Positions 3,366 through 52,025 of a stretch of 64,000 nucleotides of DNA are shown in pieces. The translations under genes and the position numbers were made by a program. Below the pieces are notes generated by a model. The model made no database searches, was not told the DNA's origin, and saw nothing but the letters and a program-made list of their open reading frames with translations. The stretch is from Dehalococcoidia bacterium (lineage in GTDB: Bacteria > Chloroflexota > Dehalococcoidia > Lucifugimonadales > SAR202-VII-2). Numbering within the stretch: position 1 is the stretch's first letter; each line of letters starts with the position of its first letter. The stretch lies in the NCBI GenBank assembly GCA_965226745.1, contig CBDDDS010000005.1, forward strand, positions 850,389-914,388, given 5' to 3'.

Positions 3366-4565
3366 TCACCGGGCGAAGGAGGGAGAGGACAGAGCTCTGA
3401 GTCGTGCGATGAGGCCGGGAAGCACGGAGAGGACGTGGTCCACCTCTTCCTCGGTGTTGCCCTTGCCCAGGGTCAAACGCAGGCTGGAGCGGGCCTGATC
3501 GGCGGTGAGACCCAAAGCCAGGAGAACGTGGGAAGGCTCCAAGGATGCACTGGTGCAGGCGCTGCCGCTCGATGCTGCGATTCCTTCCAGGTCAAGACCG
3601 AGCAGCACGGGCTCCGCCTCCACGCCGGCGAAGCTGAAGTTGACGTTGTTGGCGAGCCGCTGCGTGGGATGGCCGTTGAGACGAGCCCCTAGCGCCCGTT
3701 CCTGAATCCCCGCTATAAGCCTGTCCCTGAGGCGCAGAGAGCGCTGCGCGGTTTCTTCCCGGTCTGCTTCGGCCAGCGCCAGCGCCAGCGCTGCTCCAAC
3801 GATGCCAGGCACGTTCTCGGTGCCCGCCCGGCGCTGGCGCTCCTGCCCCCCACCAAGATGCTGAGGGTCGAAGGGCGTTCCCCTCCGGAGATAAAGAATG
3901 CCGACGCCCTTGGGGCCGTAGAACTTGTGGGCGGAAAGGCTGAGAAGGTCTACGCCCAGCCTGTCTACGTTTACGTCCATCAGCCCTGGCGCCTGCACAG
4001 CGTCGGTGTGGACGACAATGCTGCGCCTCAGCTCTTGGGCTTTTTCTCTAACCCGCTGGGCTATGTCGGCCAGCGGCTGCACTACGCCGATCTCGTTGTT
4101 GGCCAGCATCACACTGACAACGATCGTCTGGCCGGTGATGGCCTCCACCAATCCGTCCACGTCCACAAGACCTTGGGAGTCCACCGGCAGATAGGTGATC
4201 TGGAATCCTAGCCCTTCGAGCCAGTGGCAGGCGTGAAGGACAGCGTGATGCTCAATGCTGGTGGTGATGATGTGATTGCCGCTCTGCCTCAGAGCGAGAG
4301 CCGCCCCTCTCAGAGCGGTGTTGTCCGACTCCGTTCCGCCACTGGTGAAGATGATTTCGCTGGGTCTGCAGCCCAGAACCCTCGCCACGCGGTCCCTGGC
4401 GTCGTCCATGGCCATGCGGGACCGCTGTGCCAATGTATAGAGGCTGGACGGGTTGCCGAAACGCTCCGTGAAATATGGCAGCATCGCCTGGAGGACATCG
4501 GGGTCCAACGGCGTCGTTGCAGCATGGTCCAGATAGACCAGCGCTTGGGGCGAAAAGGAAGTCAA
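3366..4565 (-). CDS. cysteine desulfurase (NifS/IscS class V aminotransferase)
   Basis: 399 aa with TTG start after GGAGATGG. Has the PLP-lysine motif [10 protein letters not shown] and the active-site loop SSGSACTS. Confidence 0.9.
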
Positions 4566-4771
4566 GGACCATCTCCGGTGGCAGAAAGTCAGCTAGTGGT
4601 ATCTTACCACCAACGACGGCTGCTCCTCCGTTCGCGGGTCCGCAGTAGCGCGTCCGGCCTTCGTCCGTCCGGCGAAATGACGGGGCGACCAGGCGCCAGA
4701 GGAGAGGCTCTGCGAAGGACGGCGATAGTCACCCATGCCAGCACTGGGAGATTGAATATTGAACAAGAAAG

Positions 4772-4802
4772 AAGAGCGCCGCCCGACGGGCGGCGCTCTT
4801 CT
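4772..4802 (-). terminator. intrinsic terminator after the hyuB-like gene
   Basis: On the minus strand, GAAGAGCGCCGCCCG-TC-GGGCGGCGCTCTTC is followed by TTTCTTGTT. Confidence 0.7.
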
Positions 4803-4820
4803 CAACCGCTTCTCGTTACG

Positions 4821-7016
4821 CTACCGGGGCGCCGCCGCCAACTCCCGTTTCGGCGCCACCGCCGGTTGAACCTCCGACTGGAGGCGCTCCAGCACGTCAA
4901 AGACCACCCCGCAGGATGGGCACAGATATTCGACGAGCAGGAAGTTGGGACTGTTGCCTCCCCAACGCTCAGCCAGCCAGGGGCCTGCCTTCCTCAGTGG
5001 GCTGTGGCGCACCGCGGCAAACCGTCGCGGCTCTTCAGACGCCGAACAGTAGACGTGATGGCACTCGGTGCACCGAACAAATCCGTCGCTGCCGTCCCCA
5101 ACCTGCTCCACGTATTCGATTATCAGACGGACCGGCCGCTCTGCGGCGCCATTGCTCAGCGTTGCCGCAGCGCCGTTGCGGACGACGGCTTCGGATTTTC
5201 GCTTTTCGACAAGGCGCAGGCGCTCCTGCCGCGTGCCCTCAACTTCGACGGCGAGGTCTGCGGTCAGAACGACGCCATAGGCCAGCGTGGCCATTTCGAT
5301 GGTAACGGCTCCCCTGAGGACGTCCTGCCGGACCCGTTCCGGGTCGCGGTGAAAGGGATCGCCAACGCCGCCGCCGCCTGGGGCGTGGTAGATGTAGAGG
5401 TCGCGGCTTTCCAGGAAGCCATCGGACTTGGATGAGAGGTGCTGCAGAGCGCCTCCGAAGCCCTCGTAGCGTTCGGGGATGGACCAGGTGCCCAGGATTC
5501 GCTCTAGGTCGGCGTTTCGCACCACCGACGCCTGAGACCCGGCGCCGGGGTAGCCCCCGCCTATGCCAAGCGCGTTGGACTGGTCGGCCCCCGACGTGTT
5601 CTGGGACTTCCACATGAGCCGTTCGGTGCGGTGTGGGGTGACCGCGGATACGGCGGTAAGACCGCCCCGGAACTTGCCCGGCCCGCCGGAGTCGGGCAGT
5701 TGCTTGCGGTAAAGATAGAGCACCGGCAGCTTCCACTCCTGGTTCTCCACGTCGGCCATGAGGCTGACGGGACAGAGGGCAAAGCCGCCGTGATCGAAAC
5801 CGTCGCCGAAGGTGCGGGCGCCGGCGCCACCGCCACGGTGGTCGGACAGGACGTTGCCGACGTACTTGCCTCGCCTGCCGACGCCGAAAATGTTGACGGC
5901 GTTGATGGAGTTGGCCCAAGAGGGGCACACTAGGTCGCGGTACTTTTCCGAACCCGACATCATCTGGGACATCACATGCATTGATGCGGCGTTGGTCAGC
6001 GATGAACAGACGATGACGCCGACGCTTACCGGCGCGGGAGGCCGGCAGTTCAACACCGACCCTTCGGGAACAACTACGGTGGCAACCCGCTTCACGCTGC
6101 TATTCCAGTCGATCTCGCCGCGGCAAAGGAGGGCATGGATGGGCGCGGTGGTGCCGGCGTTGGTCACGTTCTCGGTGGTGTTGATACAGGCCGCCACCTG
6201 GGGGTCGGTCCCGGTATAGTCGAAGTAGAGGTGGTCCCCCTTCTTTTCCAGCTTCAGGCAGATCCGTACGATGCGGTCTGAGCCAACCCGGTCGCCGTCG
6301 ATGTAGACCTGCGTCGTCCACTCGCCATCCGGCAGTTCCGAAATGCGCTCCCGGAGCTTCTGCTCGGCCCAGTCGATGCTTTGGTAAGCGACGGCGGTCA
6401 CTGTGTCCACGCCGTGCTCATCCAGGACCTCGCGGAGGCGCTTCCTGGCCACGTGAATGGCCCCCACCTGGGCGCGCACGTCCAGGGCGACCATGTCGGG
6501 CAAGCGGGAATTGGTGACGATAGTGCGTTCGACCTCACTGGAGAACTTACCCCGGTCGACGATCTTCAAGAAGTAGCGCGGCGCCTCCTGATACAGGTTG
6601 TCTGCGTTGATGCAGAAAGAGCCTTCGTCCATGCCTGCGACATCGGCGTAGTGCATGACGTTGCCAACCCACATGATGTGCTCACCTTCGTAGAAGAAGG
6701 GGCTCACGACCGCCACGTCGTTTTGGTGACAGGCGCCAAGGAAGGGATCGTTGGTGAGGAAGACGTCGCCGTCGTTGATCTCACTGGCGATGGCCATCAC
6801 GTTTCTGATGATGGTGTCCATCGTTGTAACGTGGATCAGCATATAGGCGCCGGGGCTGATGATCTCGGCGTCTTTGGTGAACAGGCCGGTGCCGAAGTCG
6901 TTGCCCTCCACTACGATGGGAGACACAGACATGGTGCGAATGGCATTGGCCTGTTCGTCGTTGATCTGCCACAGGCGGTGCTTGACAACCTCGAACGTTA
7001 TCGGATCGACTCTCAT
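4821..7016 (-). CDS. hydantoinase B/oxoprolinase-family subunit (acetone/acetophenone-carboxylase alpha-like) with a fused C-terminal Cys4 zinc-ribbon resembling the carboxylase gamma subunit
   Basis: 731 aa. The HyuB-type core ends with the PGGGGVGDP...YGV motif. An extra tail of about 100 aa carries RCTECHH...YLCPSCGVVFDV. The start overlaps the hyuA stop (ATGA). Confidence 0.8.
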   Translation of the reverse strand: MRVDPITFEVVKHRLWQINDEQANAIRTMSVSPIVVEGNDFGTGLFTKDAEIISPGAYMLIHVTTMDTIIRNVMAIASEINDGDVFLTNDPFLGACHQNDVAVVSPFFYEGEHIMWVGNVMHYADVAGMDEGSFCINADNLYQEAPRYFLKIVDRGKFSSEVERTIVTNSRLPDMVALDVRAQVGAIHVARKRLREVLDEHGVDTVTAVAYQSIDWAEQKLRERISELPDGEWTTQVYIDGDRVGSDRIVRICLKLEKKGDHLYFDYTGTDPQVAACINTTENVTNAGTTAPIHALLCRGEIDWNSSVKRVATVVVPEGSVLNCRPPAPVSVGVIVCSSLTNAASMHVMSQMMSGSEKYRDLVCPSWANSINAVNIFGVGRRGKYVGNVLSDHRGGGAGARTFGDGFDHGGFALCPVSLMADVENQEWKLPVLYLYRKQLPDSGGPGKFRGGLTAVSAVTPHRTERLMWKSQNTSGADQSNALGIGGGYPGAGSQASVVRNADLERILGTWSIPERYEGFGGALQHLSSKSDGFLESRDLYIYHAPGGGGVGDPFHRDPERVRQDVLRGAVTIEMATLAYGVVLTADLAVEVEGTRQERLRLVEKRKSEAVVRNGAAATLSNGAAERPVRLIIEYVEQVGDGSDGFVRCTECHHVYCSASEEPRRFAAVRHSPLRKAGPWLAERWGGNSPNFLLVEYLCPSCGVVFDVLERLQSEVQPAVAPKRELAAAPR

Positions 7017-19924: not shown

Positions 19925-20765
19925 CCTCCCACCCCTGCCCCCGCCTACGGGGGCAGCCTCTCTTCCTTCCCTCATACTCGGGGGAAGGCTAGGAAGCGTC
20001 CCCGCCAGGTCAAGCAAACCACGCCCCCTCCATCCCCCAAGCGAGGTGCAGGGGGCTGCTCTGTTCCTGCCCCTGTACTCGGGGGAAGGCTAGGAAGCGT
20101 CCCCGCCAGGTCAGCAAACCACGCCCCTTCCCTCCCCCAAGCGAGGCGCAGGGGGCTGCCCTGTCCCTGCCCCTGTACTCGGGGGAAGGCTAGGAAGCGT
20201 CCCCGCCAGGTCAGCAAACCACGCCCCTTCCCTCCCCCAAGCGAGGTGCAGGGGGTTGCTCTGTCCCTGCCCCTGTACTCGGGGGAAGGTTAGGATGGGG
20301 GTCCCCGCCAGGTCAGCAAACCACACCCCTTCCCTCCCCCAAGCGAGGTGCAGGGGGTTGCTCTGTCCCTGCCCCTGTACTCGGGGGAAGGCTAGGAAGG
20401 GGGTCCCTGCCCCCGTCCCCCAGCAGGGTGCAGGGAGCGCAGCCCCCGCCGGGGGTACAGGGGGAGTCCCCCTGTACCCAAAAACGTTGGAGGGCGGTGC
20501 GGGCGGGATAGCGGCGCACGCCACCATACCCCCCCTCTCTCCTTCCCCTCAGCCCCTGCCCCCGAGTACGGGGGCAGCCTAGGAAGCCTCTCGACGCGCC
20601 AAGGTGAGCAAACCACGCCCCCGCCATCCCCAAGCAGGGTGCAGGGGGTGCAGCCCCCGCCGGGGGGACAGGGGGAGTCCCCCTGTCCCCAAAAACGTTG
20701 GAGGGTGGGCCGGTGGGACAGCGGCGCACGCCAAGCCAAACCCTTCGCTGAAGGAGGGCGCAAGC
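19925..20765 (+). repeat. REP-like array downstream of the methyltransferase: about 5 tandem 'A' units of about 100 bp, then B'(truncated)-A-B modules
   Basis: TACTCGGGGGAAGG cores at 19975, 20076, 20176, 20276 and 20378 (spacing 100-102 bp). B modules at 20421-20523 (truncated) and 20632-20765. Units abut one another with no unique spacers. Confidence 0.9.
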
Positions 20766-20797: not shown

Positions 20798-21215
20798 TGC
20801 CATCCCCCTATTGCAAAATACGAACAAGTGTGCTATAGTACCCCCATGAAGTCGGCCACCGGCCCCCTTCTCTTTCTCGGAGCCTGCCGCATACGTTGAG
20901 CACTGTGGGCTAACCATAGAGAATCCCCCTGTGGCAGGGGCGCTGAGGGAACAACCCAAGGGGCAAGACCCTCCGAGGAAGGCTGGGGCCGGAGCGAATG
21001 CCGTTGTAGGGCATAGGCTCTTGGGAGCCGCTTAGGCTCCCCGCGGTTTCGCTAAGGCTCGCGACGGCTCCGTCTCAGATCTGTCCCGGCTCCGTCACGG
21101 CTCCCTTCGAGAGCCGGCTGGTAAACGTCGCGAAGTGTCGCCAACTGTCCCACAGTCGTGACATCTGTCCCCTGGAGTGCTATGGATTACCGCTCTCGCT
21201 CCCGCCGCCTACCGC
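20798..21215 (+). repeat. element A of a 3-member promoter/leader element family (unknown function)
   Basis: Alignable by eye with 28126-28585: high identity over the first 250 nt or so, weaker in the middle, and shared again at gtgctatggattaccgctc. Contains a conserved hairpin GGGAGCC-GCTTA-GGCTCCC, GGCTCC motifs at multiples of about 11 nt, and the tail GGCTCCGTCACGG...GCCGGCTGG. Confidence 0.8.
20811..20839 (+). promoter_or_regulatory. sigma70-type promoter of element A
   Basis: TTGCAA-17 nt-TATAGT with spacer AATACGAACAAGTGTGC. An ATG lies 6 nt after the -10 box. Confidence 0.6.
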
Positions 21216-28125: not shown

Positions 28126-28585
28126 CTGCCTCTCCCTATTGCATAATACGAACTTTTGTACTATAGTATCGCCATGAAGTCGGCCGCCAGCCCGCTTCTC
28201 TTCCTTGGAACCTGCCGCATACGTCTTGTACTGGGGAATCCATAGAGAATGCCCCGGTGGCAGCGCTTGGGGAACATCCCCCAGGCCCACAACCCTCCGA
28301 GGAAGCGTGGGACCAGAGCGAATCCCGTTTCGAGACAAGCTCTTTGGAGCCATAAGGCTCCGCCACAGTTCATGACGATTCGCTACGACATCACTACGGT
28401 TCTTCACAACTCTCTTATGACTTCATTGCGCCTCTGATGCGCCTCTGTGGCGGCTCCGTGCCTGCAAACCCCGAAATCCGGCTGATACGCGTAACGAATC
28501 CTCGCTCACCGTCTCGAACTCTTAACTGTTGGCGCGTGGACGTGCCATAAATTACCGCTCGCGGTCCCGCCAGTCGGCGCCAGGA
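28126..28585 (+). repeat. element B of the promoter/leader element family
   Basis: Homologous to 20798-21215. Has the hairpin GGAGCC-ATAA-GGCTCC, a degenerate run of about 11-nt periodicity at about 28375-28470, and a tail GGCTCCGTGCCTGCA...TCCGGCTGA (28452-28485) nearly identical to element C. Confidence 0.8.
28139..28167 (+). promoter_or_regulatory. sigma70-type promoter of element B
   Basis: TTGCAT-17 nt-TATAGT with spacer AATACGAACTTTTGTAC. An ATG lies 6 nt after the -10 box. Confidence 0.6.
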
Positions 28586-49131: not shown

Positions 49132-50334
<1,203 letters not shown>

Positions 50335-50570
50335 CTGTCAACTCCCTGTTCCGGTGTTCACCGTCGCCCCAGCCGCGCGGCGCGGCAAACCGGGGCAGGG
50401 CCAGCCCTATTGGACCAAGCCGCCGCCCCATCCAACGCCAGGGATAGCTTGCACCAGTCCGTGGAGCGCGGCATGGCCGGATAGGGAAGATAGCGGCGGG
50501 GAAGGCGCAGCCTTTGATTGTATGTTGGTTGCGCTTGTCAGCCGGACCCCGGAGGGTGCAGGCACGGAGC

Positions 50571-50664
50571 CATCGCAGAGGCGTCGCGTATCCGTCGCGA
50601 GCCGTCGCGGAGGCGTCGCGTACCCGTCGCGTACCCGTCGCGCATCCGTCGCGGAGCCGTCGCC
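50571..50664. repeat. 11-bp tandem repeat, 9 units (core CGTCGCG on the plus strand, CGCGACG on the minus strand)
   Basis: Cores start at 50571 (CATCGCA), 50582, 50593, 50603, 50614, 50625, 50636, 50647 and 50658 (CGTCGCC). Spacing is 11, 11, 10, 11, 11, 11, 11, 11. Confidence 0.9.
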
Positions 50665-50726
50665 CGGCGCCGAACGAGGAGTGGACGGGGGTCCGCTTCT
50701 TGGAGATACTTTAGCATCTTGACGAT

Positions 50727-50755
50727 ATCATAGCACAGATGTTCTTATCCTGCAA
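50727..50755 (-). promoter_or_regulatory. sigma70-type promoter of element C / argG
   Basis: On the minus strand, TTGCAG-17 nt-TATGAT with spacer GATAAGAACATCTGTGC. Confidence 0.6.
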
Positions 50756-50825
50756 GTAGGAGGGCCGGGGGCAGAGATTCCCTAGCTAGGCCCCAAGGAA
50801 GCCAGGGGGCGTCCGTGATTGCAAC

Positions 50826-52025
50826 CTACCCCGTCTGACGCTTCCGGGCCGTCACAAGCCCACGCTCCAGACGGCGCAGACCTTCTTCGATCTCCTCGGG
50901 GGAAATCGTCAGGGGCGGCGTGAACCGGAGAATGTTGGGGCGGACCGGGTTTGAGAGCAAGCCCTCTTCATTGCAGGCGGCTACGGCCGCGGGAGCCATG
51001 TCGTCGACGAACTCCAGAGCAAGCAGGAGTCCCTTGCCCCGCACGCCGGCGACGAATTCGAGCCTGTCCCTGATGCCCTCGAGCCCCTGCCTGAGAAGGT
51101 CTCCCGCCACGGATGCCTGGCTGGGCACGTCATTATCGACAATGTATTCCACTACAGCGGCAGCCGCGGCGCACGTGAGGGCGTTGCCACCAAAGGTCGA
51201 GCCGTGGTCACCGGGCGAGAGGACGGCGGCATGCTCCTTCATCAGGAAGGCGCCGATGGGCACTCCTCCGCCCAAGCCCTTGGCCAGGGTCATGACATCC
51301 GGCTCCACGCCAAAAGCCTCGTAGCCCCAGAGTGCGCCGAGGCGACCCATCCCCACCTGGACTTCGTCGAATACCAGAAGCAGGTTATTGGCATCGCACC
51401 AGGCGCGCACGTCCTTCAGATAGTCGTCGTCGGGAACGTTGACTCCGCCCTCGCCCTGAACGGGCTCCAGCATCACTGCGCAAGTCTTATCGGTGGTGGC
51501 CTTGCGAATGGCCTCAACGTCGTTGTAGGGCACATGGACGAAGCCGGGCAGCAGCGGCTGCCAGGCCTCTTGATAGTGGGGCTGGCCCGTAGCTGCGACT
51601 CCAGCAAAGGTCCTGCCGTGGAACGAGTCCAAGGCCGTGATGATTTCGTAGGCGCCGTTCCTATTGAGTCTGCCGTACTTGCGGGCGGTCTTGATGGCGC
51701 CTTCCACTGCTTCCGCGCCGCTGTTGCACACGAAAACCCGGTCCATACAACTGTTCTCGACAAGAAGCTGAGCCAATTTGACCTGGGGCCCGGTAAAGAA
51801 CTGGTTGGACGTCTGCATCAGAGTCCCCGCCTGCTCTGCCACGGCCTGGACAACCACCGGATGGCAATGGCCCAGGTTGTTCACGGCCCAGCCTGCGGTG
51901 AAGTCCAGATACTCCCTGCCATCCTCGTCCCAAACCCGCGTGCCTTCGCCCCGCACAATGACGATAGGCTGCCTCCGCACGACTTGTAGGTAGTATTGGG
52001 CCTCCATGTCCCGCGTCTGGCTCAT
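50826..52025 (-). CDS. argD: acetylornithine aminotransferase (class III)
   Basis: 399 aa with the PLP-lysine context TLAKGLGGG. The start overlaps the UPF0182 stop (ATGA). Confidence 0.9.
   Translation of the reverse strand: MSQTRDMEAQYYLQVVRRQPIVIVRGEGTRVWDEDGREYLDFTAGWAVNNLGHCHPVVVQAVAEQAGTLMQTSNQFFTGPQVKLAQLLVENSCMDRVFVCNSGAEAVEGAIKTARKYGRLNRNGAYEIITALDSFHGRTFAGVAATGQPHYQEAWQPLLPGFVHVPYNDVEAIRKATTDKTCAVMLEPVQGEGGVNVPDDDYLKDVRAWCDANNLLLVFDEVQVGMGRLGALWGYEAFGVEPDVMTLAKGLGGGVPIGAFLMKEHAAVLSPGDHGSTFGGNALTCAAAAAVVEYIVDNDVPSQASVAGDLLRQGLEGIRDRLEFVAGVRGKGLLLALEFVDDMAPAAVAACNEEGLLSNPVRPNILRFTPPLTISPEEIEEGLRRLERGLVTARKRQTG

Follow-up and report, generated by a model that had tools for sequence, protein, structure and literature searches.

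The repeat array and its neighbourhood

The window analysed here is a stretch of 64,000 nucleotides from a genome (G000) of 3.17 Mb, in five contigs with 64% G+C, which the relatives of its ArgG place in the Dehalococcoidia, Chloroflexota. On the minus strand of the window lie argD, encoding acetylornithine transaminase (50826–52025; TIGR00707, E 3e-140), and downstream of it argG, encoding argininosuccinate synthase (49132–50334; NF001770, E 2e-168). The gap between the two genes is 490 bp, and inside it, at 50571–50664 on the same strand, there is an array of nine units of 10–11 nt, with CGCGACG as their core and, at position 10 of the unit, a conserved T. Read in the sense of argG, the units are in order GGCGACGGCTC, CGCGACGGATG, CGCGACGGGTA, CGCGACGGGTA, CGCGACGCCTC, CGCGACGGCT (10 nt), CGCGACGGATA, CGCGACGCCTC and TGCGATGGCTC, followed by CGTGCC. 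They are arranged head to tail over a span of 94 bp, all of them 11 nt long apart from the one of 10, and seven of the nine contain CGCGACG exactly. TRF reports the array as 50582–50663, with a period of 11, 7.5 copies and a score of 101.

Over the whole window the core is no more frequent than in shuffled sequence, with 23 matches where 22.5 are expected. Its clustering is nevertheless far beyond chance, since seven of the 23 matches lie on one strand within 72 bp, at regular steps of 11, 10, 11, 11, 11 and 11 nt. An earlier note on this DNA had described a nine-unit 11-bp repeat with a single 10-bp step, lying between a promoter and argG and unable to be a coding repeat. The reading of the units and TRF both show that the repeat is real and correctly placed, and a promoter-like site is indeed present on its upstream side, at 50727–50755. 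The statement on coding is borne out as well: there is an Arg-rich ORF of 59 codons that runs through the array (50538–50717, minus strand), but it is not conserved among copies of the repeat, its frame being kept in seven of 17, and we judge it not to be a gene.

The array is a module of a transposable element

When the genome was searched for at least three CGCGACG cores at steps of 11 or 22 nt, nine loci were found, all of them within the same element of ~350 bp. The nature of this element is clear from a comparison with a sister species (G001), which has 99% identity in ArgG and ~96–97% in the flanking DNA; 2.8 Mb of it were compared at orthologous sites. A short-form CGCGACG copy at C5:~442150–442530 of G000 is absent from G001. 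The empty site in G001 reads ..CCGAG CTAG ACGGAG.., and in the filled site of G000 there is a CTAG on both sides of an element of ~375 bp, which ends in imperfect 16-bp inverted repeats, GGTGTCTCTGAACAAG / GGATAGTCTGCACAAG. TIR-like sites of this kind number 108 in G000.

Alignment to this polymorphic copy gives the ends of the copy at argG, here called copy C, as 50442–50781 (minus strand, 340 bp, short form), and the same ends recur in other copies of the element. From the argD side, copy C consists of the left inverted repeat, a promoter, a 5' hairpin, the array, a conserved tail and the right inverted repeat. Its terminal inverted repeats, GGAATCTCTG.. at 50772–50781 and ..GGATAGCTTGCACCAG at 50442–50457, match those of the polymorphic copy, the left one having a 5-bp deletion relative to G001. 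The sequence CTAG adjoins the left end at 50782–50785 and is the left copy of the target-site duplication seen for the polymorphic sister copy; the right copy, at 50438–50441, reads CTGG on the minus strand, with one substitution that is common to G001. Pattern scans of genome and metagenome contig collections for the empty site of copy C itself gave no match.

The tail module, CTCCGTGCCTGCACC..GGTCCGGCTGA..ACATACAATCAAAGGC-hairpin, occupies 50497–50570 on the minus strand and was found by nhmmer in 70 copies; its box is also present in the cassettes of other species, described below. Read on the opposite strand, the tail resembles a terminator, with a hairpin and T-run at 50501–50525 (plus strand), GAAGGCGCAGCCTTT GATTGTATGT, which is found in the same place in ~70 copies and faces against the element's own promoter.

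An element of 340 bp, present in many copies, with no transposase of its own and with a single, unconserved ORF has the features of a MITE. The array is thus a module of a non-autonomous IS5-type MITE, whose mobility and copy number are both directly observed. The only insertion sequence found with matching ends is a single-copy element of 1207 bp at C2:311074–312280 of G000, which has MITE-like ends, a CTAG duplication and a frameshifted transposase with DUF772 and DDE_Tnp_1 domains (IS5-type); no copy of it turned up in the 2.8 Mb of G001.

Another IS5-like element (TIR GAGACCTTTGC; five copies, 99.7–100% identical) was initially suspected to be the parent because one of its copies sits between MITE ends. 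It was rejected, as that copy is nested in one MITE and the ends are different. The five copies, with the TIR GAGACCTTTGCATAA, lie in G000 at C5:155461–156477, C5:553563–554579, C5:694238–695254, C3:42794–43810 and C3:7550–8566, every one of them inside a small hairpin repeat (..CCCGTAC/TCGGGGG..), which is a strikingly specific target. Two transposases related to this element are present in G001 in 12 and 14 copies. Just upstream of one of the G000 copies, at C5:~155390–155430, there is a run of ~40 G broken by one A, which could be either a homopolymer tract or an artefact of the assembly.

Distribution and forms of the family

Using nhmmer, 122 copies of the 5' module (promoter and leader) and 70 of the tail module were identified in G000, and 115 and 75 respectively in the 2.8 Mb of G001. 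The family has two forms: a short form, which includes the argG copy, and a long form with an extra conserved core of ~210 nt. Two long-form members are present in the window, both on the plus strand. Member A (20798–21215) has the ~210-nt core and a short GTCNC/GCGAC array followed by a decayed zinc-ribbon ORF, and member B (28126–28585) has a degenerate array of 10–11-nt units. In every form an array of 10–11-nt units lies directly before the tail, with a core that depends on the subfamily (GCGAC, GTAAC, GTTAC, GTCNC and others). A period of 11 is the commonest tandem-repeat period in the G000 genome, and 86 of its 112 arrays of period 10, 11, 21, 22, 32 or 33 adjoin family modules.

The genes beside the copies are unrelated and include SDR genes, a uvrB-like gene and one similar to malate dehydrogenase. 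Of the copies, 55 point the same way as the gene downstream and 60 do not, which amounts to no bias, as counted with a crude GC3 gene finder covering 73% of the genome; there is likewise no consistent bias relative to replication in G001. At the gathering threshold, Rfam finds nothing but a tRNA-Sec in the whole window, and in E-value mode the matches near copies A and C are at chance level (E ≥ 1). Taken together, the data document a lineage-restricted bloom of a MITE in an uncultured, marine-type member of the Dehalococcoidia.

The longest array seen is at C4:345371–345810 of G000, where the family promoter is followed by ~30 units of 11 nt, GCGACATAGCC/GCGATATAGCC, which continue up to the RBS of a decayed zinc-ribbon ORF; there is no tail module at this locus. 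It is worth adding that the window also contains, at 19975–20399, a 100-bp unit repeated 4.2 times (TRF score 746), which is built from a small hairpin repeat, ..CCCTGCCCCTGTACTCGGGGGAAGGCTAGGAAGCGTCC.., that also flanks many of the MITE copies.

Evolution of the arrays

At 24 orthologous pairs in G000 and G001 the flanks are 96–97% identical and the element 85–90%, and the last 100 nt before the tail, which correspond to the array, are only 72–77% identical. Comparison unit by unit shows that spacers have been replaced in blocks and that the number of units changes. Some orthologous loci even differ in the type of array, for example GTAAC against GCGAC. Such swaps of core type (GTAAC against GCGAC or GTTAC) are seen at C2:~189817, C5:~603536 and C3:~463926 of G000. 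The presence of different core types at the same site implies that whole array cassettes have been exchanged between copies within ~3–4% divergence, and together with the block replacement it implies that ectopic conversion between the many copies is frequent. Arrays are therefore swapped between copies faster than anything around them changes.

The units themselves are much more regular. A unit profile was made from 222 units of the GCGAC type (34 arrays) and 196 11-nt units of the GTAAC type, without using T10 in finding the units. Position 10 is T in 96–98% of units of both types, and positions 8, 9 and 11 vary. Unit length is 10–12 nt only, with means of 10.96, 10.76 and 10.61 for three types, and the number of units has a mode of 9–10 and a range of 3 to ~30. 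The polarity of the core flips between subfamilies (GTAAC/GTTAC, GTCNC/GNGAC), and the rest of the unit keeps its orientation.

The promoter and the LexA-type box

The promoter-like site of copy C (50727–50755, minus strand) consists of a -35 hexamer TTGCAG at 50750–50755, a spacing of 17 nt and a TG-extended -10 hexamer TATGAT (TG-n-TATGAT) at 50727–50732. Between them is a LexA-type box, GAACATCTGTGC, at 50733–50744. The site is conserved in ~120 copies, for which the consensus is TTGCAx, 17 nt, TG-n-TAtaAT, with GAAC-N4-GTGC between the hexamers. A strict sigma-70 scan does not call the promoter of copy C because its -35 hexamer matches at only three of six positions.

Sites similar to the box are found upstream of recA (GAACGAATGTGC) and of lexA (GAACATGCGTTC) in G000, and the genome has 154 sites GAAC-N4-GTGC, most of them within the MITE family. 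The box and its similarity to the recA and lexA sites make LexA control of the family promoter plausible. For argG, copy C likely supplies a second predicted promoter, possibly inducible by DNA damage, which would reach the gene through a leader of ~385 nt. The only other likely local effect is 340 bp of extra spacer. Across the genome, the bloom of the MITE has moved a predicted, probably LexA-controlled promoter and a phased array to positions beside ~120 genes. The ~120 extra LexA-type boxes that arrive with the family could also titrate LexA.

The array at argG shows no link to arginine

The location of the array between argD and argG, and the Arg-rich ORF that runs through it, would fit an arginine-responsive operator or attenuator dedicated to argG, and arginine-responsive control had been put forward in the earlier note. 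The distribution of the repeat makes this extremely unlikely: the array is a MITE module, members of the same family stand beside unrelated genes at ~120 per genome, and the array is missing in one close relative and reshuffled in another. In G001, copy C is at the same place, with MITE arms that are 93.2% and 91.5% identical to those of G000, native spacers at 94–98%, the argD end at 100% and the argG end at 97%, and an array that is only 72.3% identical. The congener G002, whose ArgG is 90% identical, has an argD–argG gap of 370 nt without the array, and no family member was found in it or in 18 other relatives at BLAST sensitivity. The earlier note had named free variation of the repeat number among close relatives, with no effect on expression, as the sign of a neutral minisatellite, and the array does vary freely between them, as the 72% identity shows.

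No match to the C-terminal domain of ArgR (Arg_repressor_C) was found in the 95%-complete G000 genome despite its full arg cluster, and arginine control here must therefore work in another way. The further idea that the transcribed repeat is bound by a ring-shaped RNA-binding attenuator protein finds no counterpart in the genome. TRAP and HutP (PF02081, PF09021) have no match in the 95%-complete assembly, in a search for which the Bacillus subtilis control was positive, and the triplet motifs 5–7 nt apart that belong to these proteins are not matched by a motif of 7 nt with a period of 11 nt. No terminator is predicted on the argG-sense strand between 50250 and 50950, and the z-score for the fold of the argG leader RNA, -2.15, is weak and unremarkable.

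An Arg-rich leader peptide was also considered and rejected, as the frame is not conserved and the same ORF occurs upstream of unrelated genes. Of 17 copies with the ATG retained, seven reach the same GGCTGA stop, close to the one in three that chance alone would give with units of 11 nt, and the arginine codons arise from the CG-rich repeat in any frame. What does stand from the earlier note is its description of a non-coding repeat with a period of about one helical turn, for which a cooperative or iteron-like protein array is the most plausible interpretation, and also its remark that the array is unlike AT-rich ARG boxes: an ARG box is a palindrome of 18 bp, and the array is GC-rich and made of direct repeats; it is the link to argG and arginine that fails. 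At argG the array is a passenger. The outcome for this gene is thus deflationary: the repeat is transposon cargo, and annotators should read no leader control into it.

Origin in a zinc-ribbon/terminase cassette

In ~45 copies (G000 and G001 together) the element is followed by a small ORF, MDYRSRSRRxCxW..(Y/S)CSGRCR.., which in most of them has decayed. The zinc-ribbon protein that it encodes has 46 database homologues, which form a narrow group. It contains no Pfam domain and has no match in the PDB by sequence search, its weak PHROG matches are all to families without a known function, and the AlphaFold model is poor (pLDDT 54).

The native setting of this gene is best seen on a contig from another species (L607), where at 4001–5642 an intact 150-aa zinc-ribbon gene overlaps an intact gene for a 406-aa large terminase, TerL (Terminase_6N/6C), the pair lying between host genes. 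Upstream of it the order is promoter, leader, 14 x CGCGATGGnTn, the conserved box CCGTGCCTGAAAACCCTGAAATTCGGCTGA, ~60 nt and GAGGTG-ATG. On contig L608 there is an ACGACGG array. G000 has an intact zinc-ribbon/terminase pair with a GTAACG array at C3:270955–272602, and a second, decaying pair with a frameshifted terminase and a portal gene downstream. The zinc-ribbon protein of a further contig, L609, is 100% identical to that of G000, so that L609 may not be an independent species but come from the same organism. In L607 and L609 the intact pair adjoins an MmgE/PrpD gene, and it is an orphan among ordinary host genes.

In the native examples (L607, L609/G000 C3:272602 and G001:140638) a small gene lies ahead of the large terminase, and the arrays are found at its promoter or start; copy C, a transposed copy, is placed otherwise. 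The interior of the MITE originates from the promoter and leader of this terminase cassette. From its position and the overlap of the genes, the zinc-ribbon protein is a putative small terminase.

TerL is 92–93% identical between cassettes and the N-terminus of the zinc-ribbon protein 52–68%. The conservation of TerL against a partner at ~60% suggests that the terminase has been kept by selection without a visible capsid gene, and no HK97-type capsid gene was found in the G000 genome. There are five variants of the zinc-ribbon protein, each paired with a different array core, which is suggestive of a matched specificity of protein and array; with n = 5, the covariation could simply be linkage. 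A strict covariation is weakened by the cassettes at C3:54996 of G000 and G001:140638, which have identical protein N-termini and different mini-arrays downstream (GTCGC/GTCCC and GTCAC/GTCTC respectively).

A model for the array, and alternatives to it

On the basis of these observations, the explanation that we consider probable as a whole is that a MITE carries the leader array of a phage cassette, which is read at the DNA level in its native place and is a passenger at argG. The MITE would have inserted at CTAG in the argD–argG spacer in the common ancestor of the G000 species and its sister. It consists of imperfect 16-bp TIRs, a predicted strong host-type promoter with a LexA-type operator, a 5' hairpin, 3–12 units of 10–11 bp and the tail, and its interior was taken from the promoter and leader of a two-gene cassette of phage origin, which encodes the zinc-ribbon protein and the large terminase. 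There, with the promoter on one side and the zinc-ribbon start codon on the other, the array would most likely act on double-stranded DNA, offering one short site per helical turn over ~100 bp. The zinc-ribbon protein, as the presumed equivalent of a small terminase, may form an oligomer that binds it cooperatively or wraps the DNA. We infer that binding of the array at the DNA level by a small-terminase-like zinc-ribbon protein is the best reading. A duplex-DNA reading is favoured by the helical-repeat period, the length of ~100 bp, the flip in core polarity, and the native position, which resembles that of SPP1-type pac direct repeats.

In the pac region of SPP1, direct repeats cover the promoters and the beginning of the gene for the small terminase, the HTH motifs of the ring are one helical turn apart, and ~100 bp of DNA are wrapped (PMC4737164). 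The cassette array shares with SPP1/SF6-type pac sites the placing of repeats around the promoter or start of a small gene preceding the large terminase, the length of ~100 bp and the helical-turn modules. The differences are that the repeats of SPP1 are few and fall into three kinds, and that its small terminase is an HTH protein, whereas here there are 4–30 near-identical units and a zinc-ribbon protein without detectable similarity to known small terminases, and the arrays have been scattered ~120 times by a transposon. The zinc-ribbon protein and the 10–11-bp array could be a new kind of terminase recognition module.

A rival reading is that of a minisatellite without function whose units turn over by slippage and ectopic conversion in the cassette and in the MITEs, with nothing reading them. 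No part of the element is less conserved than the array (72–77% between sister species), the number of units ranges from 3 to ~30, whole cassettes swap at orthologous loci, insertion orientation is random, and hypervariability is expected of a functionless repeat too. What makes this unlikely is the constraint that remains: all the cassettes seen, from at least three species, retain an array downstream of the promoter and ahead of the zinc-ribbon gene, with a core that differs; the unit is unevenly conserved, with the core and T10 fixed and positions 8, 9 and 11 free; and the length is never outside 10–12 nt, 10s and 11s being mixed (means 10.6–11.0), where slippage alone would lead to a single unit length. 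The array is also always downstream of a promoter and in sense orientation, as it should be if it worked as RNA in the 5' leader of the zinc-ribbon/terminase genes, by offering a platform to an RNA-binding protein, or else by pairing with the single inverted motif downstream and so controlling translation. A lone CGTTAC after GTAACG arrays and a lone CGTCAC after GTGACG arrays, just before the RBS, would suit the second version. We nevertheless think an RNA element rather improbable, because the flips in core polarity would be harmless to a reader of duplex DNA but not to a reader of RNA, the period equals the helical repeat of DNA, and the short forms of the GCGAC type, copy C included, have no complementary motif in the tail; the fold z-score of only -2.15, the lack of an Rfam match and that of a TRAP or HutP gene point the same way.

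Short motifs at 10–11-bp steps are, moreover, common in phage contigs, and on the two of these that were inspected they are associated with replication: the array of L293 is inside a Phage_rep_org_N gene (E 2e-36), and that of L320 is in a replication-initiator gene adjoining a primase-helicase. The array and the short AT-rich patch near it (ACATACAATCAAAG) might on this analogy form a satellite-like origin, with the units as iterons bound by an initiator. The cassette, however, has a terminase and host genes as neighbours, with no initiator, primase or helicase adjoining, and no Phage_rep_org_N was found in the G000 genome, which leaves an origin very unlikely. The sharing of the GTAACG hexamer with phage arrays was rejected as evidence, as the control hexamer GATACG gave as many viral matches among those listed.

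If the array is indeed a site for a small-terminase-like protein, a more speculative reading suggests itself, to which we attach little credence at present. The orphan pair may still read the arrays, so that DNA damage or a helper phage would start packaging genome-wide, giving transduction; alternatively, the arrays may be decoys that titrate the terminase of an invading phage. Were this true, more than 100 packaging-recognition arrays behind DNA-damage-inducible promoters would amount to a built-in, genome-wide transduction system.

Comparison with known repeat families

Modular intergenic repeats are familiar from other bacteria. The BOX elements of Streptococcus pneumoniae consist of boxA, a number of boxB units and boxC, and the Correia/NEMIS elements of Neisseria can bring promoters to neighbouring genes. 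These resemble the present family in being modular and intergenic and in the variable number of the middle module. In BOX and Correia elements, unlike here, the middle modules, where there are any, measure 45 bp, show no helical phasing and do not derive from the leader of a phage packaging gene.

Head-to-tail cores at a similar spacing are known from regulatory and partition systems: the parC site of plasmid R1, bound by ParR, has ten 11-bp repeats, PHO boxes and SARP boxes have a 7-nt core and a 4-nt spacer, and MraZ boxes are of the same general kind. They have cores every 10–11 bp that are read cooperatively on one face of the duplex, as would be the case for the array described here, and the PHO and SARP boxes also share its 7 + 4 = 11 format. 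The loci of the present family showed no ParR/ParM genes, no response regulator and no link to MraZ, and we claim no membership of any of these systems.

Among described elements, the nearest in kind is BrickBuilt of Porphyromonas gingivalis, a MITE that contains a minisatellite and promoters. It consists of a leader, a 23-nt tandem minisatellite and a tail, and the inverted repeats at its ends are small (Klein et al., 2015; PMC4596501). Like the present family, BrickBuilt has many intergenic copies, a limited host range and internal promoter elements (PMC4596501). In contrast to its 23-nt unit, the unit here is 10–11 nt, or one helical turn, and the interchangeable cores, the origin in a terminase cassette and the LexA-type box are further differences. 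New in the present family are a unit of one helical turn, cores that can be interchanged, a promoter with a LexA-type box and a phage origin that can be traced.

The iterons at phage origins (Phage_rep_org_N) are similar in having hexamer cores, for example GTAACG, at 10–11-bp steps, followed by an A/T- or A/G-rich stretch. They differ in lying inside a coding region, as in-frame 21-nt double units beside replication genes, whereas the arrays of the present family are non-coding and stand beside a terminase. Phage_rep_org_N genes with GTAACG arrays, encoding the peptide ..SNVTCNVTVTQSNAT.., are present at L293:4498–4560 and in many IMG/VR contigs, and these arrays are probably origin iterons inside the gene.
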